From Pyrobaculum sp. (lineage in GTDB: Archaea; Thermoproteota; Thermoprotei; Thermoproteales; Thermoproteaceae), in contig JBKBOT010000006.1 in NCBI GenBank assembly GCA_046293555.1, forward strand, positions 1-64,000: DNA of 64,000 nt, written 5' to 3'. A program made the translations under genes and the position numbers. Below are positions 3,755 through 51,318 of the stretch, one piece after another. Numbering within the stretch: the first letter of the stretch is position 1; each line of letters opens with the position of its first letter. A model generated the notes under the pieces. That model did no database searches. It was not told the origin of the DNA and saw only the letters and a list, made by a program, of their open reading frames with translations.

Positions 3755-3806
3755 TAGATGGAGATATGATGCGTGCAGTCAATTATATATGGGGGGAGAT
3801 ATATAT

Positions 3807-14644: not shown

Positions 14645-16030
14645 TTATTTATTTACCGGAAGCTCTTTTAACACAAGGCTAGTCAAGGTGGAGGCAACCC
14701 CCTTGACCTCCCTAATGTGTTCAATAACGTTGTTAAGATCTTCGGTGTTTTCAGCCACGACCTTCACCACGATGTCGTAATCGCCTGTAACCTCAGACAC
14801 TGCGGCCACGTTTTTCAACGCCGCCAGGCGTCGCGCCACGGAGGTGGTGTAGACGTTATTAGCCACCTTAATCCAGACGTAGGCCTCTATGTGCCTATTT
14901 ACTCTCGCCCTGTAGGCCGTCTTGGTGATTTTCTCTAGTATTTCCAACAGGTCGTCATCGCGGAGCCGCCTCACGTTGAGACTTTTCACCTCTTCTACCA
15001 ACCTGTCTACCACGTCCAGGGGGACCGTGATGCCCATACGTTCTAGCCTATACTGTATGGCTTTCCTCCCGCTGTATTTATCTAGAGAGAAGTCCCGTTC
15101 TCTCCCCACAACTTCTGGAGGTATGGGCTCGTAGGTCTCCGGGCTGGCTATAACTCCAGCCTGATGTACGCCAGCCTTATGTGTAAATACGTTTTCCCCA
15201 ACAATGGGGAAGTTAGGCATTGTGGGGATCCCGCTGGCAGTCTCCACAAGGGCTGTGACCCCCGGGAGTTTTTTCAAGTCTACCAACTGGACGCCGCGGT
15301 GGTAGTAATATGCCGCCGCGAAGACCTGTAGCGGCGTGATGCCCGCCCTCTCCCCAAGGCCGTTGACAGTAGTGTGGACGACATCTGCTCCCCCCTCCAC
15401 AGCCGCCAGACTGTTAGCTACAGCCATGCCGAAGTCGTTATGGGCATGTATGTCTAACCCCACTGTGGGCACAGCCCTTTTGGCCATAGAGAAGACCTCT
15501 CTCGCCCTATCTGGCGTAAAGACCCCCACCGTGTCTGCAATACTGACCCTATCTGCGCCAGCCTCGTGGGCTGTCTTCACCACCTGGATCAAGTAGTTTA
15601 AGTCAGCCCTAGAGGCGTCTTCTGCGGTGAATCTCACAGCCACGCCGTGAGATCTAGCGAGCGAGACCATTTCCGCAACTATCTGGAGGGCCTCCTCCCT
15701 GCTTTTCCTGTGTTTATGTCTCAAATGGATATCGCTAATGCCGTAAAAAACCGCCACTCTATCTGGCTCCAGAGAGGCTGCGTTCTCCAGATCTCTCCTT
15801 ACGGCTCTGGAGTGGACTACTATCTCGCCTTTAATCTCCCCGTTTTTCTTCATGGCTACTATCTTCTTAACTGCCTGTCTTATGTCAGGAGCCACGTTGG
15901 GATCTCCCACTTCAATCATCCCAACTCCTATATCCGACAGCGCCTTTGTGATTCTAACCCGCCACTCTTCGGAAAATATGACGCCGGGGGTCTGCTCCCC
16001 CTCTCTTAAGGTGGAGTCTAGAATCGCCAC
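14645..16030 (-). CDS. homocitrate synthase with C-terminal Lrp/AsnC (RAM) ligand-binding domain; true start may be ATG 16050 via a -1 frameshift
   Basis: LDSTLREGEQ, RFTAED, HAHND, GLGERAG, HKAGVH; C-terminal EVTGDYDIVVKV...IR.VKGV..T.T. Confidence 0.88.
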   Translation of the reverse strand: MAILDSTLREGEQTPGVIFSEEWRVRITKALSDIGVGMIEVGDPNVAPDIRQAVKKIVAMKKNGEIKGEIVVHSRAVRRDLENAASLEPDRVAVFYGISDIHLRHKHRKSREEALQIVAEMVSLARSHGVAVRFTAEDASRADLNYLIQVVKTAHEAGADRVSIADTVGVFTPDRAREVFSMAKRAVPTVGLDIHAHNDFGMAVANSLAAVEGGADVVHTTVNGLGERAGITPLQVFAAAYYYHRGVQLVDLKKLPGVTALVETASGIPTMPNFPIVGENVFTHKAGVHQAGVIASPETYEPIPPEVVGRERDFSLDKYSGRKAIQYRLERMGITVPLDVVDRLVEEVKSLNVRRLRDDDLLEILEKITKTAYRARVNRHIEAYVWIKVANNVYTTSVARRLAALKNVAAVSEVTGDYDIVVKVVAENTEDLNNVIEHIREVKGVASTLTSLVLKELPVNK

Positions 16031-16050
16031 TCTTTCCCCTCTCGAGCCAT
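16018..16050 (-). other. leader mini-ORF MAREGKEWRF* with G-GGG-AAA(Lys) candidate -1 slip site
   Basis: ATG 18 nt after TTTTATAT (16076-16069); a -1 slip on GGGG (16039-36) joins the homocitrate synthase frame. Confidence 0.6.
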
Positions 16051-16079
16051 GTCGCCAAGATGAGACAGATATAAAAGCC

Positions 16080-17063
16080 TTACGCCACCAGAGAGGCCAC
16101 GTGTTTACCCACCTCTCTCGTGGCGTTAGAGCCGCCGATGTCAGGCGTCTTCACTCCCGCCTCTAGGGTCTTCTCCACAGCCCACCTTATGGCGCCAGCG
16201 GCCTCCTTTTCGCCAAGCCATTCAAACATCATGGCGGCAGACAGAATGGCGGCAATGGGGTTTGCAACACCTCTACCAGCTATGTCAAACGCGGCGCCGT
16301 GTACCGGCTCAAACATGGCCTTTCTGTCGCCAATATTGCCGCTAGGGGCCAAGCCGAGTCCCCCCGCCACCTGTGCCGCCAGATCTGTCAAAATATCGCC
16401 ATATTGGTTTGGAGTTAACACCACGTCGAAGCGGGTGGGGTTCCTCACGAGCTCCATAGCCGCGGCGTCTACATACATCTGGTCTACCTCTAGTCCTTTC
16501 AGCTCTTCTAGCGCCACGTCTCTAAAAAGCCCATCTGCCACTCTCAACACGTTCGCCTTGTGGACTATGGTGACTCTCTTTTTCCGCATTTCTGCATACC
16601 TCCTGGCCACCCTGGCCACCCGTCTGGTCCCCTCCTCGGTGATGACCTTAAGCGCTATGGCCACGCCGCCGGCTTTATACTCTGCGCCTATGTATACATC
16701 CTCCACGTTTTCTCTCACAAAGATGCAGTCAATAGGCCTTATCGCCGGGACGCCGGGGAGGTTTTTTACAGGCCTGATGTTGGCATATAGCAGATATCTC
16801 GCCCTAATTAAAGAGGTGACGTCAAAAGCGGACTCCCCCACAGGCCCCTTGAATATAACGTCTGCGGCATCTGCCAGCTTTAAGGTCTCAGGCGGCATGG
16901 CCACCCCGTATCTTCTAAACGCCTCGTCGCCAGCCTCCGCCATCTTTATCTCAAACTCCACGCCGTATTTGGCGGCAGCGGTGTTTACTACATACATCGC
17001 CGCCTCTACTACCTCAGGCCCGATGCCGTCTCCCGGAATTACGAGAAGCCTATATGGCGCCAT
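16080..17063 (-). CDS. leuB: 3-isopropylmalate/homoisocitrate dehydrogenase
   Basis: [42 protein letters not shown]. Confidence 0.92.
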
Positions 17064-18182
17064 AAGACCTCACGACCTCTTTTAGTACCACCTCATCTAC
17101 CCTAATCTTTCTCGCTGCATATTCTTTAACTTTCTCCAAGACGTATGTAACCAGCTCTTCGTCTGGCTCAATCCCAAGGTTTTTCAAAGCCCACTCTACT
17201 GAGTGTTTGCCGGAGTGTTTACCCAACACAATCCTCCTCCTGTTGCCCACATCTTCTGGCCTCATGGGCTCGTAGGTAAATGGGTTATTTAACACCCCAT
17301 GTACATGTATCCCCGCCTCGTGGCTAAAGGCGTTCTCCCCCACCACCGCCTTGTTGGGAGGCAGAGAGATGCCAAACAGTTTTGACACTAGTTGAGACAA
17401 CTCGTAGAGCTTATGTAGCCTTATGTTTGTCCTGTATCCCAACAGGAAGTGTAACGCGGCCACCACTTCTTCCAACGCCGCGTTTCCAGCCCGCTCGCCG
17501 AAATTATTTACCACCACCTGCGCTACCTCCGCCCCAGCCTCTATTGCCGTCACCGTGTTGGCTACAGCCATGCCGAAATCGTCGTGGCAGTGGACATGTA
17601 TAGATACTGGCGGCAGCCTGTCTTTTAGGTAAGTTATTAGGTAGGACATCCTGCCGGGAGTCATCACCCCCACTGTGTCTGGGACGTTTATCTCGTCTGC
17701 CCCCGCCTCTATGGCGGCTCTATAGGCCTCCACTAGAAACTCCAAGTCGCTCCTAGTGGCATCCTCGGCGCTAAACAATACCCTCACCCCGTGAGACTTG
17801 GCGTAAGTCACCACCTCCTCTATCTTCTTGATTACCTCACTGCGGGTCATCTTTAGTTTGTACTTCATATGTATGTCAGAAGTGGCGATAAACAGGTGGG
17901 CTATGTCTATATCTGCGGAGAGGGCGGCATCTACGTCAGATTTGTTCATCCTGGCCAGACTTGCCACTTCCGCGTTTTTCACCTCTCTGGCGATAGCCCT
18001 AATTGCCAACACCTCCTCTCTAGAAACTGCGGCAAATCCGGCTTCTATCATGTCTACCCCAGCGTCGTCTAGGGCAATTGCAATCTGTAGTTTTTCTTGG
18101 GGTGTTAGAGCCACGCCGGGGGTCTGCTCTCCATCTCTCAGAGAGGTGTCAAAGATCTTTATGACACGAGCCCCGAAGCCAT
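17050..18182 (-). CDS. leuA: 2-isopropylmalate synthase (short form, no C-terminal regulatory domain); predicted to need a -1 frameshift after ATG 18182
   Basis: [42 protein letters not shown]; the only in-frame ATG (18201) overlaps the TATA box. Confidence 0.85.
18159..18182 (-). other. leader mini-ORF MASGLVS* with G-GGG-CTC(Leu) candidate -1 slip site
   Basis: ATG 18 nt after GAAAAG-TTTTTATATA (18216-18201); a -1 slip on GGGG (18174-71) joins the leuA frame. Confidence 0.65.
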
Positions 18183-18200
18183 ATAGAGGGAAAATCGACA

Positions 18201-18238
18201 TATATAAAAACTTTTCAGCTCTCTAAAAGATATATATA
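18201..18238. promoter_or_regulatory. divergent BRE/TATA promoters of leuA (-) and leuD (+)
   Basis: minus strand GAAAAGTTTTTATATA; plus strand AAAAGATATATATA 17 nt before the leuD ATG. Confidence 0.7.
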
Positions 18239-18255
18239 GGCGTTTTTTACAGCCT

Positions 18256-18735
18256 ATGCGCATAAGGGGGAGGGCTTTGGTATATGGAGACAAGATAGAC
18301 ACAGATGTCATCATCCCGGCGAAATACCTCGTATATACAGACCCCAAGATACTTGGCCAACACGCCATGGAGCCAATAGACCCCCACTTCCCCCAGAAGG
18401 CAAATGGGGCGATACTGGTGGCAGGCCGCGCCTTCGGCATGGGCTCCTCTAGAGAGCAGGCAGCCATAGCGCTAAAGGGGGCTGGGGTTTTGGCGGTAGT
18501 GGCTGAGAGCTTCGCAAGGATCTTTTTTAGAAACGCCATAAATGTGGGGCTGCCGGCGCTACAAGTGCCAGGCGTGAGGTCTAAAGTGAGGGAGGGGGAT
18601 ATGCTAGAAGTAGACATAGAGGGGGGCCACGTGGTGAATTTAAACACAGGCGAGGTGATAAAAGGCAAGCCCCTCACCGGCCTGCCCTTAGAGATCCTAA
18701 AGGCGGGTGGGCTGATTAGCTTTCTGAAGAAGTAG
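18256..18735 (+). CDS. leuD: 3-isopropylmalate/homoaconitate dehydratase small subunit
   Basis: GDKIDTDVIIP, FGMGSSREQA, SFARIFFRNAINVG. Confidence 0.95.
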   Translation: MRIRGRALVYGDKIDTDVIIPAKYLVYTDPKILGQHAMEPIDPHFPQKANGAILVAGRAFGMGSSREQAAIALKGAGVLAVVAESFARIFFRNAINVGLPALQVPGVRSKVREGDMLEVDIEGGHVVNLNTGEVIKGKPLTGLPLEILKAGGLISFLKK

Positions 18736-19179
18736 CCTACAGCGCGGGCAGAAAAACTGGCTTTTCCTATCTGTATCCAGCAGGGAGTTGCTGAAATACA
18801 TGACGCAGTGGGGGTCGCCACAGTGGCCAAGCCCATATAGATGGCCAGCCTCGTGGGTAATCTCTTTAGCTAGCCTCTCCTCAAATCTTTCCCCCAGTAG
18901 CCTAGCCGTAAACACCACGGCGGTCCCAACCTTGGGTATCGCCAAGCCGAACACATAGCTAAGGCCGGGGTAATACCCGTCGCAGTTTAGCACATAGACT
19001 GTGGGGTATCTCTCCCTGCGCGCCAGAGCTTTTACCGCCCTCTCTGCTCCACACTGGCCCCGGGGCGGGTCAATAAAGGTAGACACATCTACGTCAAAAG
19101 TCCGCCACTCTACGTCAAATTCCGGCACCTCTACTACCGGCAGTGAGGCCGGGGCGTAGACTATAAGCCTAGGCCTCAT
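18697..19179 (-). CDS. amzA: archaemetzincin zinc metalloprotease
   Basis: HEAGHLYGLGHC...CVM.FSNS...D.K...FC..C. Confidence 0.92.
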   Translation of the reverse strand: MRPRLIVYAPASLPVVEVPEFDVEWRTFDVDVSTFIDPPRGQCGAERAVKALARRERYPTVYVLNCDGYYPGLSYVFGLAIPKVGTAVVFTARLLGERFEERLAKEITHEAGHLYGLGHCGDPHCVMYFSNSLLDTDRKSQFFCPRCRLLLQKANQPTRL

Positions 19180-20944
19180 TTCTATATACTAGATACTGCG
19201 CCGAGGGACATGCGGAGCTACATAGGAGACACCCCACACACCTCCCTGCGTCTACTCTAAAACTCCTGCCGGGCCCCACCCTCTTTAAGGCGCCGGTGGG
19301 GCACCAGTGGACACATAAGTCGCAGTCACCACATATGGCGGCTCTTACTAAAAGCCCGGCGGCATCTAGGGCAAACCTCACGTCGCTGGCCCTAATTAGC
19401 CACCTACCTCCCACACGCCGTATTTCAGCCTCCCCCCTCTCCCCCCTGGCCGTATATCTCTCCACAGATCCCAACATCTTTAGAAACTCTCCAAGTGTCT
19501 CCAAATTTGGCTCCGCCTTTAGCTCCACCAGTAGGCCCCCCTGCGTTTTTGTCAGCCTTGCCGGCAGCTCCCCCTCTCTGCTCTTTTTTGCCCACTTTGC
19601 CACATCGCCTGGAGTTTTCCCACGCCAACGCCATAGCCCTAGCCTCCACTCCTCCTCGGCCACTTCCCTCCTGGCGGCTTTCTCAAGTCTCTCAAAAATC
19701 TGGGGGTAACTTCTCTCCACTGTCGCCAGTTCTGCCATCTCGTTTGCGGGACATATCACACAGCCCAGCCGGTCAAAACCTCTCTCATACGCCGGGTTGT
19801 ATGGAAGGCGGTAGAGATATATATACAGCCACACCTCTAGGGCGGTCCATCCCTGTATGGGCGCTGCCACCAGAGAGCCGGCGACCCACCTGCTTTGTGA
19901 CACCCGCGGGAGTTTAGCTCTGAGGAAAGACTCGGCGCCCCTCTGCCCAACCACGCTTATATAGCCCTGAGGGAATCTCTCCTTGAGGACACGGGTGGTT
20001 GGCGCCAGTTTGACGACTTTACAACACCAGCGGTAGTCTCTCGCGGGTAGGCCAAACCTCTCTACCCCCCTCCAAAAGGCGTCGCCCGCCTTTCCCACTA
20101 TGACCTCAGCTTTGTACCGCACTTCTATCTCCCTGAGGTTTTCATACGTCTCCGGCGGCTCTAAGCCGGTATCGTTAAAATATATGTAAAAACTGACCCC
20201 GGCCCTCGCCGTCAGGTCTAACGCCACCAAGCTGTCTTTACCCCCAGAGTACGACACCACCACAGGCTTTTTGTGCCTCTCCACAACTTCTCTCAAAAAC
20301 TTGACGGCCTCCATGGCCTTTTTCTCCATGTGGTCTCTGTTAAACAAGGCGGCTTCCTCAAGCGTGGAGGGCCTGCCGGATGGCAGCGGCCCTCTGGCCC
20401 GCCAGGATTTCACCACATGTAGTCTACCGCCTCTAAACAGCTTGGCCACCCCATGTGTCCTCCCGTCTCTCGTGGAGATAGCCACATGTCTATATTTCTC
20501 CCGGGGGAGCTTCCCCTCTACCACCCTGTCTTGACGTATGTCGTAACCAGGCGGCAGTTCTGACATATCTACCACCGCCCAGTACCCCAGCCTCTCTGCG
20601 AGCATGGTGGCTACCCCCTCGTAGAGAGGCCTAAAACGCCACCGTCTTTCCGACAAGTCGTAAAACCTGTGTCCAATCACCCTCCCCCTTACCACCACCT
20701 CGTCTGCTTGATCCGCATAGCCGGGTATCTTGTTGAGAAGGATGACCTCACCCCCCGGAATTAACGCCTTTAGCCTCTCGTCTCCAAACTCGTTGGCCAA
20801 GGCCTCCCTCAAGGTCTCCACATCTGCCGGAAAGGCTGGGCGGGGGTCTTGTGGCTGGGTTAGCCTAACTTCTACATACTCGCAGTCGCCCCCCCTGGGC
20901 CTCAGCGCTGGGATGTTTAAATCTACACACCAGTAGAGAGTCAC
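19169..20944 (-). CDS. PAPS-reductase-family PP-loop protein with C-terminal 2x[4Fe-4S] domain
   Basis: SYSGGKDS, DTGLE, RWCCKVVK, RLGCVICP, CGDCDLC..WCP, CVGCLLC...CP. Confidence 0.88.
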   Translation of the reverse strand: MTLYWCVDLNIPALRPRGGDCEYVEVRLTQPQDPRPAFPADVETLREALANEFGDERLKALIPGGEVILLNKIPGYADQADEVVVRGRVIGHRFYDLSERRWRFRPLYEGVATMLAERLGYWAVVDMSELPPGYDIRQDRVVEGKLPREKYRHVAISTRDGRTHGVAKLFRGGRLHVVKSWRARGPLPSGRPSTLEEAALFNRDHMEKKAMEAVKFLREVVERHKKPVVVSYSGGKDSLVALDLTARAGVSFYIYFNDTGLEPPETYENLREIEVRYKAEVIVGKAGDAFWRGVERFGLPARDYRWCCKVVKLAPTTRVLKERFPQGYISVVGQRGAESFLRAKLPRVSQSRWVAGSLVAAPIQGWTALEVWLYIYLYRLPYNPAYERGFDRLGCVICPANEMAELATVERSYPQIFERLEKAARREVAEEEWRLGLWRWRGKTPGDVAKWAKKSREGELPARLTKTQGGLLVELKAEPNLETLGEFLKMLGSVERYTARGERGEAEIRRVGGRWLIRASDVRFALDAAGLLVRAAICGDCDLCVHWCPTGALKRVGPGRSFRVDAGRCVGCLLCSSACPSAQYLVYRNEA

Positions 20945-37143: not shown

Positions 37144-37803
37144 ATGTATGACGTGCCCTTCGTGGCCACTCCAGAGGTGGTAGTCCGGCGGATGTTACAA
37201 CTGGGCCGGGTAAAGCCAGGCGAGGTGCTTTACGACCTGGGGTCTGGCGACGGGAGGATTGTCATAATGGCCGCCAGGGAGTTCCAGGCAACTGCCTTTG
37301 GCGTAGAGATTAGGAAAGATCTATATGAACAGTCTCTCGCACGTATAAAAGACCTGGGTCTCTCCAGCCGGGCAACTATCATAAACGCCAGTTTTTACGA
37401 GGTGGATCTCTCCAACGCAGATATAGTCACCATGTACCTCCTAACTAGCGTAAACGAGAGGTTAAGGCCAAAGCTAGAGAGAGAGTTAAAGCCAGCCGCC
37501 AGGGTGGTGACTCACGACTTTGAGGTCCCCGGCTGGCGGCCTGTCGTCGTGGAAGAAGTCTACGAGGAGTGGAGAAGCCACAAGCTCTATCTCTACAAGA
37601 TCCCCGGCAGGGAGATACCTCTCCCCGGCAAGTCCAAGCCGCTGGAAGACAGGTGGCTTAGCCAAGTGGCGGAGCTAATTGACGGCAGCCGGTCTCTAGA
37701 AGACATAGCCACAAAGTTGGGCACCACGATTAGGAGTGTTAGAGAGGCTGTCGAGAAGTTAAAAGAGCTGGGGGTGGTGGGGGAGGTAAAGACAGTTAGA
37801 TGA
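37144..37803 (+). CDS. SAM-dependent methyltransferase (protein-lysine aKMT-like) with C-terminal HTH
   Basis: VPFV.TP..VV.RML, YDLGSGDGR, MYLL..VN..L.PKL, HDF; ATG 20 nt after TTTATATA. Confidence 0.85.
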   Translation: MYDVPFVATPEVVVRRMLQLGRVKPGEVLYDLGSGDGRIVIMAAREFQATAFGVEIRKDLYEQSLARIKDLGLSSRATIINASFYEVDLSNADIVTMYLLTSVNERLRPKLERELKPAARVVTHDFEVPGWRPVVVEEVYEEWRSHKLYLYKIPGREIPLPGKSKPLEDRWLSQVAELIDGSRSLEDIATKLGTTIRSVREAVEKLKELGVVGEVKTVR

Positions 37804-50552: not shown

Positions 50553-50568
50553 GGGATATTTTATAGAC

Positions 50569-51318
50569 GTGAAGGTCGTGGTGACAAATGACGACGGCGT
50601 CCACACGCCTTTTTTAGAGCCGTTAATAGAGGCGTTGAGAGAAGATGGCCACCACGTCGTGGCGGTGGTGCCAGAACGGCCGAGATCTGCCGCGGGGCTT
50701 GCCAGGACGTACCACAAGCCGCTGAGGGTAAGAAAGGTGGGGGGCCTCTATGTCATCAACGGCTTTCCTGCAGACGCGGTGTTTCTCGCGTTAAAACTCC
50801 TGGCCCCAGATGCAGACCTGGTGATCTCTGGGGTGAACGTAGGTGAAAACATTGGCCTTGAGGCCACTTATGGCAGCGGCACCGTGGGCGCCGCCATACA
50901 GGGCGGCGTGTTGGGAGTGCCCTCACTCGCCCTGTCTATGGAGGTGGGGGGAGATATAGCCCTCATGAAGAAAATAGTTAAAGCCGCTGTGGAGACAGCA
51001 GGGTGGGGGATTGAAGACTTCCTCGCGGTGAGTTTAAACATACCTAACAGATGGGGCGGCGGGCTCTACTGTCCCAGCCGGCTGGCCAGAATTGTGTATA
51101 GAGAGAGGCTTTATGAAAACATAGACCCGAGGGGGGATAGGTACTACTGGCGTTGGGGCGATAGGGTGGACCGCCTCGACGAGGGGACAGACGCCTATTA
51201 TTTCTACATAAGGCGGGGCGTCACGGCGTTGGGCATCACGGAGAGGGGGGTGGCGAAAGCCGAGCCGTTTGTGGGAGAGCTAGCTGTGAGAATTGGGGCA
51301 AAATACATAAAGTGTTAG
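50569..51318 (+). CDS. surE: 5'/3'-nucleotidase SurE
   Basis: VTNDDG, G.PAD.V, SGVN.G.N, SGTVGAA. Confidence 0.95.
   Translation: MKVVVTNDDGVHTPFLEPLIEALREDGHHVVAVVPERPRSAAGLARTYHKPLRVRKVGGLYVINGFPADAVFLALKLLAPDADLVISGVNVGENIGLEATYGSGTVGAAIQGGVLGVPSLALSMEVGGDIALMKKIVKAAVETAGWGIEDFLAVSLNIPNRWGGGLYCPSRLARIVYRERLYENIDPRGDRYYWRWGDRVDRLDEGTDAYYFYIRRGVTALGITERGVAKAEPFVGELAVRIGAKYIKC

Follow-up and report, generated by a model that had tools for sequence, protein, structure and literature searches.

Homocitrate synthase and its leader

The window analysed here, a 64,000-nucleotide stretch of DNA from Pyrobaculum sp. (contig JBKBOT010000006.1, positions 1 to 64,000), carries on its minus strand a gene for homocitrate synthase (HCS), the first enzyme of the lysine pathway, whose start region contains a TATA-like box, an ATG and a short leader open reading frame (ORF) that lies in a different frame from the enzyme. 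The family assignment was made by profile search (TIGR02146, 518.6 bits against a cut-off of 413.55), which also identified HMGL-like (PF00682) and HCS_D2 (PF22617) domains and confirmed the C-terminal RAM domain that an earlier note on this DNA had recognized (PF01037, E = 7.6e-18). The LysM ligand domain resembles HCS residues 373–456 (NF040947, 68.6 bits), the homocitrate synthase of known structure PDB 6ktq aligns from residue 2 of the annotated ORF (E = 6e-141), and protein search showed 84–85% identity to HCS of P. islandicum and P. neutrophilum. On the same strand, an isopropylmalate synthase (IPMS)-like gene and a leuB-like gene lie directly upstream of HCS and an ornithine carbamoyltransferase gene lies downstream. 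The features of the locus, with the frame of the leader ATG taken as the zero frame, are as follows.

14645–16039, minus strand: HCS frame as entered by a −1 slip; 464 codons from the re-read GGG, plus stop
14663–14878, minus strand: RAM (Lrp/AsnC ligand-binding) domain at the HCS C terminus; residues 385–456 of the GTG-started ORF
16018–16050, minus strand: leader ORF ATGGCTCGAGAGGGGAAAGAGTGGCGATTCTAG, encoding MAREGKEWRF and a stop in the zero frame; 11 codons from ATG 16050
16028–16030, minus strand: GTG taken as the HCS start by the ORF caller, a Val codon in the enzyme frame; possible secondary initiation site
16033–16039, minus strand: putative slip site G_GGG_AAA; GGGG at 16039–16036, AAA at 16035–16033
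16036–16041, minus strand: Shine-Dalgarno-like GAGGGG, 5 nt before the GTG and overlapping the slip site
16069–16076, minus strand: TATA-like box TTTTATAT, candidate HCS promoter, 24–26 nt 5' of ATG 16050
16080–17063, minus strand: leuB-like isopropylmalate/homoisocitrate dehydrogenase; TIGR02088, 397.8 bits; PF00180

The leuB-like gene ends with a TAA at 16082–16080, leaving 29 nt to the leader ATG. As the earlier note had described, the leader ORF at 16050–16018 overlaps the annotated GTG at 16030, and the GGGG at 16039–16036 is followed by AAA; all of this was confirmed on the minus strand. The GTG is in the −1 frame relative to ATG 16050 and opens an ORF of 461 amino acids (16030–14645). 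In the zero frame the putative slip site is read as GAG (Glu), GGG in the ribosomal P site and AAA in the A site; after a −1 slip, GGG would be re-read at 16039–16037 and the next codon would be GAA at 16036–16034. The reading frames thus predict a trans-frame product that begins MAREG/ERVAILDSTLREGEQ, where the slash marks the slip. The 16S rRNA gene lies outside the window, and GAGGGG is called Shine-Dalgarno-like from its own letters.

Considered alone, the feature in the window is not beyond chance. Counted on both strands, GGGGAAA occurs 16 times, against 12.5 ± 3.2 in shuffled sequences, and at least 16 occurrences were obtained in 19 of 100 shuffles; a short out-of-frame ATG ORF near a start is common as well. 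Enrichment of the heptamer in the window was rejected as support, its count being within the range of the shuffles. The feature rises above chance because it is conserved across orthologous loci in a fixed frame relation.

Conservation of the cassette and its recurrence in two further enzyme families

A genome scan returned 79 HCS loci, 13 of them from Thermoproteaceae; one of these (L011) was left out for a run of N over its 5' end, and the comparison set of 13 loci therefore consists of 12 Pyrobaculum/Thermoproteus loci and the window. Leaders were compared by means of motif-anchored tables, as the MAFFT alignment misplaced an extra codon of the window and of L006. All 13 loci carry a TATA-like hexamer 24–28 nt before the leader ATG, the ATG itself and G_GGG_AAA, and all have HCS in the −1 frame of the leader; the Lys codon is always AAA and never AAG. 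The GGG is codon 4 in 11 loci and codon 5 in the window and L006, and the leader stop follows 2–10 codons past the Lys codon. Apart from the invariant ATG and slip site, the leader peptide is variable.

Canonical start codons are largely missing from the enzyme frame. Between the leader ATG and the conserved LDSTLREGEQ motif, one is found in two loci only (GTG in the window and in L001), and in 9 of the 13 loci there is no ATG, GTG or TTG anywhere from the nearest upstream in-frame stop to that motif. The position of the window's GTG is occupied by GTA or GTC in six loci and by no Val codon in five. GTG makes up 54% of the Val codons in the window, and its presence at 16030 therefore needs no selection. 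The earlier note had read the G run and the Lys codon as a slip site with its sensing codon, and this reading is supported by the orthologs, which keep AAA after GGGG and the upstream ATG (13/13 for each) while the GTG varies and can serve as a start in 2/13. Its caveat, that GAGGGG with the GTG might equally be an ordinary ribosome-binding site and start, holds for the window, where the two are indeed 5 nt apart, but not for the orthologs, in which the arrangement is not conserved.

The nucleotides of the slip site are more constrained than their surroundings. Insertions and deletions preserve both frames: the distance from ATG to GGG is 3 or 4 zero-frame codons, and that from GGG to the Ile of the ILD motif is 3, 4, 5 or 6 codons of the −1 frame. 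Of the 80 third positions in the leading HCS codons, all 13 loci agree at only 6, and among codons with an invariant amino acid the third base is kept in 4 of 45. GGGGAAA never varies, though it spans two synonymous third positions in the enzyme frame; the enzyme-frame codon after GAA encodes Arg, Ser, Asn or Ile, yet its first base is always A, as required by the AAA of the zero frame. Judged by these patterns, selection is acting on the nucleotides of ATG and GGGGAAA, and both frames appear to be read. An ortholog illustrates the predicted junction, MRSG/ENRPIILDSTLR.

Five HCS loci from Sulfolobales/Desulfurococcales (L013–L016 and L018) begin normally, at an in-frame ATG or TTG that is followed by AAA (MKVGILDSTL), and lack the cassette, which thus appears, in the loci sampled, to be restricted to Thermoproteaceae. 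In six of the Thermoproteaceae loci (L002, L003, L004, L005, L007 and L017), a second conserved motif, TATATA(G), was observed about 43–45 nt upstream of the HCS leader ATG. It sits in a spacer of about 90 nt between HCS and a divergent PAPS-reductase-like gene (about 593 amino acids) and is probably the promoter of that gene. The gene order differs in the window, where the PAPS-reductase-like gene (19169–20944) is on the HCS strand and the archaemetzincin gene, a 225-amino-acid ORF, the IPMS-like gene and the leuB-like gene lie in between.

When the window was scanned for short ORFs that open with an ATG behind a TATA box and have a long −1 frame, 11 hits were obtained, among them a second cassette, at the start of the IPMS-like gene.

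17050–18174, minus strand: IPMS-like frame as entered by a −1 slip, the enzyme being in the −1 frame
18159–18182, minus strand: leader ORF encoding MASGLVS and a stop; ATG at 18182; putative slip site G_GGG_CTC (Leu) at 18174–18168
18201–18210, minus strand: TATA box TTTTTATATA; the ORF caller's ATG 18201 starts at its last base

The ORF caller's version of the gene extends over 383 amino acids (17050–18201), and the match to TIGR02090 (506.9 bits against a cut-off of 484.75) begins at residue 13–14 of this ATG-18201 ORF. The orthologous IPMS start is present in five Pyrobaculum loci with 76–81% identity over 27–105 codons, and all five show the arrangement ATG-N3-TCG-GGG-CTC; with the window included, the Leu codon and the −1 position of the enzyme are both found in 6/6 IPMS loci. 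Between the archaemetzincin and IPMS-like genes, a 225-amino-acid ORF (18159–18836, minus strand) gave no hit in Pfam or NCBIfam, runs with its 3' end into the IPMS promoter and leader and may not be a real gene.

A third instance is the large subunit of biosynthetic acetolactate synthase (ALS), found in four Thermoproteus loci (TIGR00118, 594–595 bits against a cut-off of 538), whose leaders are located as follows.

L008, 2282–2341, minus strand of the locus: ALS leader
L009, 2282–2341, minus strand of the locus: ALS leader
L010, 2277–2336, minus strand of the locus: ALS leader
L012, 2196–2252, minus strand of the locus: ALS leader

Each of the four leaders (for example, MDSGVSSGLEGIAPIGSSIE followed by a stop) contains three G_GGG sites, which are followed by GTC or GTT (Val), CTC (Leu) and ATC (Ile), the third site being at codon 10–11. 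The enzyme is in the −1 frame of the leader in 4/4 loci, and a canonical start in the enzyme frame is present in L010 only, as a TTG 7 nt before the leader ATG. In one ALS locus, the stretch from site 1 to site 2 is shorter by one complete codon, which preserves the frame.

Across the three families, the −1 relation and a TATA-to-ATG distance of 24–28 nt are found in 23/23 leaders (13 HCS, 6 IPMS and 4 ALS), and G_GGG is present at every site (13 in HCS, 6 in IPMS and 12 in ALS). The leaders are 6–20 codons long and contain one cognate codon (HCS and IPMS) or three (ALS), the A-site codon matching the pathway in each case: Lys for HCS, Leu for IPMS and Val/Leu/Ile for ALS. With the amino-acid frequencies of the window and each family counted once, the joint chance of the Lys, Leu and Val-Leu-Ile matches is about 3e-6, rising to about 9e-5 when the ALS sites may hold any branched-chain residue. 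The conservation of the cassette, its frames, the missing starts and the agreement between codon and pathway can all be read directly from the sequences. The amino-acid meaning of the codon after the HCS slip site gains support because the IPMS and ALS leaders carry codons cognate to their own pathways.

The cassette is also specific to these genes. Among 135 TATA–ATG candidates in the window and the 13 loci, a homopolymer slip site combined with a −1 frame open for at least 100 codons was present in 22, of which 19 belong to the HCS, IPMS or ALS families; of the other three, two (at 3769 and 50588 of the window) are accounted for by ordinary starts, probably so in the second case, and one is in L008. 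Two short ORFs behind a TATA–ATG pair on the plus strand of the window were rejected as further cases: the one at 3769 is explained by an ordinary ATG of the −1 ORF at 3789, and the one at 37148 by an in-frame ATG 4 nt upstream. In a SurE-like gene (50558–50620, plus strand), an out-of-frame ATG at 50588 lies about 27 nt past a TATA-like box and opens an ORF encoding MTTASTRLF that ends in T_TTT_TAG, with the gene at −1; an in-frame GTG (VKVVVTNDDG) gives an ordinary start, the TATA box being only about 12 nt before it, and the ATG was rejected as probably due to chance. In L008, a TATA–ATG short ORF of 39 codons at position 339 (plus strand) has a C_CCC_TCT site and a long −1 frame.

The position of the leader ATG is also that expected near an mRNA 5' end. 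Throughout the window, the distance from a TATA-like hexamer to the next ATG peaks at 24–30 nt. Spacers of about 90 nt separate HCS and IPMS from divergent neighbours in the Pyrobaculum loci, which leaves no upstream gene to read through from; the mRNAs of both genes must therefore start within these spacers, and near the mRNA 5' end the out-of-frame AUG is the only one. Leaderless transcription was first described in Pyrobaculum aerophilum, according to a passage of PMC6028130.

The cassette would further account for the way in which these genes are annotated in public databases. Among the 74 closest public HCS proteins, 54 have been called too short and lack the catalytic motif DSTLREGEQ, another 10 reach upstream across the TATA box, and the remaining 10 begin on the Ile codon or beside it, at most 4 residues from the motif; one P. 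aerophilum record is labelled 'with possible unusual start codon'. The N-extended calls contain the Gly-Glu pair in 10/10 cases and [YH]-x-x-G-E in nine (P0010 has one residue more), as the cassette predicts. P. aerophilum, P. islandicum, P. neutrophilum and other species were compared by protein N termini, which cannot show zero-frame codons. The predicted junction is not at the N terminus of any of the 120 public proteins listed, all of which are gene-caller predictions and not measurements. A frameshift cassette would explain this long-standing misannotation of HCS starts in Pyrobaculum and Thermoproteus.

A putative frameshift attenuator and its alternatives

On these grounds, the cassette is very probably a conserved recoding signal needed for HCS expression. 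HCS probably has its own TATA promoter, with the mRNA 5' end at or next to ATG 16050; this transcription start, the slip itself and its dependence on charged tRNA are steps that we infer from the arrangement described above. The reading we consider likely is that, on a leaderless mRNA, the P-site tRNA-Gly shifts by −1 when the end product's codon in the A site is left empty, or 'hungry'. Ribosomes would initiate at the 5' AUG and read four codons, bringing peptidyl-tRNA-Gly on GGG into the P site and the Lys codon AAA into the A site. With plentiful Lys-tRNA, AAA would be decoded and translation would continue in the zero frame to the early stop, yielding MAREGKEWRF and no enzyme; with scarce Lys-tRNA, the A site would stay empty, tRNA-Gly would re-pair one base back on G_GGG, and GAA would be read next, leading into HCS in the −1 frame. 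The net effect would be that of a translational attenuator, a negative feedback that ties the first enzyme of the lysine pathway to lysine supply. That the HCS cassette senses lysine in this way, through the hungry AAA codon, we regard as probable, with somewhat less assurance than its being a recoding signal. The same device, fitted with cognate codons, would serve IPMS (Leu) and ALS (Val, Leu and Ile), and we lean towards a Thermoproteaceae regulon of frameshift attenuators in which the first enzymes of the Lys, Leu and branched-chain pathways are made only when the ribosome slips on G_GGG at an empty cognate codon. The RAM domain probably adds feedback on HCS activity; a paper on the HCS RAM domain and lysine was not found in the literature search.

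The geometry of the sites suggests which kind of slip would be involved. A −1 move on G_GGG allows tRNA-Gly to re-pair perfectly, and the A-site codons AAA, CTC, GTC and ATC become GAA, GCT, GGT and GAT after the shift, with a mismatch in the first position. The A-site tRNA cannot re-pair, and therefore the two-tRNA heptamer model fails and only one-tRNA P-site slippage fits. Slippage of this type, with a vacant A site, is triggered by limitation of aminoacyl-tRNA and is independent of a stimulatory element, as stated in an excerpt of a 2021 review (PMC8211752). In the HCS leaders, the invariable choice of AAA over AAG may reflect the decoding of AAA by a single tRNA species.

Several points weigh against this interpretation. 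G_GGG_AAA is not a canonical X_XXY_YYZ tandem heptamer. In ordinary ORFs of the window (19,770 codons), GGGG falls most often in the G_GGG phase, with 354 in-frame cases, three in-frame copies of G_GGG_AAA are present, and no avoidance of in-frame G_GGG was detected; the site therefore is not strongly shifty alone, or needs extra context such as closeness to the 5' end. AAA is not rare in the window (404 AAA against 484 AAG), and for this reason an argument from codon rarity was rejected. The window's GTG, with GAGGGG 5 nt upstream, could support some ordinary initiation in this genome. The loci share descent, and 13/13 therefore stands for fewer than 13 independent events; the 13 loci have 10 distinct HCS leader sequences, and some pairs are 95–97% identical over the stretch compared. 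For ALS, the sample consists of four loci of a single genus, Thermoproteus. The IPMS-like enzyme passes only a subfamily model, which covers isopropylmalate, citramalate and homocitrate synthases, and for that reason we infer, rather than read off, leucine as its end product. Finally, no shared or significant RNA fold was found in the first 80 nt from the ATG of the 13 leaders, with z-scores of −1.39 to +1.38 at 37 °C; at 85 °C, the minimum free energies of the same leaders were 0 to −4.8 kcal/mol.

Other searches for structure gave the same picture. A G5/C5 hairpin in the window was rejected: its sequence stems from the conserved EGEQTPG codons, it begins 31 nt beyond the site, and the orthologs do not retain it. 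Searched against Rfam at the gathering threshold, the whole window yielded only two tRNAs, and the region 15850–18350 yielded nothing at E ≤ 1. With neither a conserved fold nor an Rfam match, RNA structure gained no support as a stimulator or as a sensor.

Two alternatives keep an ordinary or fixed route to the enzyme. The frameshift might be real but constitutive, the G_GGG slip being a fixed correction that sets a low level of expression and the next codon no sensor at all; such a slip would fit the cassette, the frame relation and the missing starts equally well, and the abundance of AAA agrees with it, but it leaves the three ALS sites unexplained, as well as the cognate codons (Lys in 13/13, Leu in 6/6 and Val-Leu-Ile in 4/4), whose joint chance is given above, and we regard it as unlikely. 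The other route is initiation at GTG 16030 by means of GAGGGG, for example on an IPMS–leuB read-through mRNA, with the small ORF as a remnant or an occluder of the start. The spacing of 5 nt, the leuB-like stop 29 nt before the leader ATG on the same strand and the GTG at the same position in L001 are in its favour. The codon is GTA, GTC or absent in 11/13 loci, however, neither the start nor its spacing is conserved in the orthologs, and a GTG at this place is expected by drift given its share of the window's Val codons; moreover, the cassette of the window is intact, including its own TATA box 24–26 nt before the ATG, and occlusion would need neither G_GGG nor a fixed −1 relation. As the way in which HCS starts in this genome, this is rather improbable; GTG 16030 could still add some ordinary initiation there, for example on leuB read-through mRNA.

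The remaining alternatives dispense with the ribosomal slip altogether. HCS could start at a non-canonical Ile codon (ATT, ATC or ATA) before LDSTL, with GGGG as the ribosome-binding site; public records do begin with MILDSTL or MLDSTL, and NCBI translation table 11 counts ATH codons as possible starts. Against such a start, the distance from GGGG to the Ile codon is about 8–20 nt across loci, long and variable for a ribosome-binding site, internal non-AUG initiation would be unlikely on a leaderless mRNA or one with a very short 5' end, and no account is given of the invariant ATG at a fixed TATA distance, of the fixed frame of ATG and GGG AAA or of the cognate codons in three families, all of which makes it very improbable. 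Alternatively, RNA polymerase might slip on the G run and add one G, bringing the ATG into frame with HCS, and the product of such transcriptional realignment would be identical to that of a −1 ribosomal slip; compared with known sites of transcriptional slippage, four G make a short run, and the next codon, which tracks the pathway in three families, would have no role, so that we give this hardly any credence. The same very low standing is assigned to a DNA-level explanation, in which TCGGGG downstream of the start is an operator or promoter-proximal element for a common amino-acid regulator and the frame is incidental: ATG-N3-TCGGGG is indeed common to the three gene families and repeated in the ALS leader, but the TC is absent in 4/13 HCS loci (CA, GC or GA instead), only the G run being kept, and the missing starts, the −1 relation in 23/23 leaders, the frame-keeping insertions and deletions and the cognate codons would be unexplained.

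Significance and relation to known systems

The means by which archaea tune amino-acid production to supply during translation are poorly understood. Mechanisms familiar from bacteria, namely classical attenuation, T-boxes and most riboswitches, work through RNA folding, which is fragile at the growth temperatures of Pyrobaculum and for which a leaderless mRNA offers no room. With only a slip site and a 'tasting' codon after it, the proposed cassette would be a minimal sensor free of RNA structure, and as such could function near 100 °C. If true, the proposed hungry-codon slip would represent the first natural regulatory use of hungry-codon frameshifting and the first attenuation-like, ribosome-based sensing of amino acids in Archaea. 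A literature search, which did not cover subscription journals and leaves an earlier report possible, found no report linking Pyrobaculum or Thermoproteus, frameshifting and these enzymes, and no paper joining homocitrate synthase and frameshifting; as far as this coverage extends, sensor-type programmed frameshifting is without precedent as a control of amino-acid biosynthesis. Genomes could also be searched for the cassette by its simple order of elements: a TATA box, an ATG and a few codons, then G_GGG, one further codon and a long −1 ORF.

The slip envisaged here resembles hungry-codon leftward frameshifting, in which a single P-site tRNA slips by −1 while awaiting a scarce aminoacyl-tRNA, with no stimulatory structure. 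Such leftward shifting under amino-acid starvation was reportedly described by Gallant and Lindsley. It is known as an error or laboratory phenomenon, whereas in the HCS, IPMS and ALS leaders it would be a conserved programmed switch. On functional, starvation-specific trans-frame products of hungry-codon shifting, the verdict of a major recoding review is that 'no examples are known' (PMC5009743).

The bacterial prfB gene, which encodes release factor RF2, offers a similar logic: an early codon that is slow in the A site, a slip of the P-site tRNA and a full product that is made only when the A-site factor is scarce and that replenishes this factor, giving negative feedback. It differs in that the shift is +1, the A-site codon is a UGA stop read by a protein and an upstream Shine-Dalgarno sequence acts as stimulator, on a bacterial, leadered mRNA. 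The prfB frameshift is mentioned in a passage of PMC6028130.

With the attenuators of the trpL, leuL, ilvL and hisL type, the cassette shares a short leader that contains codons for the end product and a dependence of expression on ribosome speed, and the Val, Leu and Ile codons of the ALS leader parallel those of the ilv leaders. In contrast to these systems, it has no terminator or antiterminator hairpins and one codon per site in place of a run, it would act by switching frame within one mRNA, and its leader overlaps the coding sequence of the enzyme. As proposed, the cassette resembles an attenuator in function, yet it falls outside the trpL-type family.

The α-L-fucosidase gene fucA1 of Saccharolobus solfataricus has a classical A-rich heptamer as its slip site. 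It is similar in being a crenarchaeal gene that needs a −1 frameshift for the full-length enzyme and different in that the site is in the middle of the gene, with no metabolite-sensing role described in the excerpt of PMC8211752; according to that excerpt, fucA1 is the only −1 programmed frameshift reported in Archaea. A further comparison is offered by the polycysteine short ORFs of mycobacteria, which, as summarized in part of bioRxiv 10.1101/834739, are leaderless, sense one amino acid through their codons and control biosynthetic genes. These ORFs are bacterial, contain runs of Cys codons and act on downstream genes of the operon without a frameshift, whereas the archaeal leaders would deliver the ribosome into the enzyme itself; on that partial account, the mycobacterial Cys-sensing short ORF is the nearest analogue on leaderless mRNAs.

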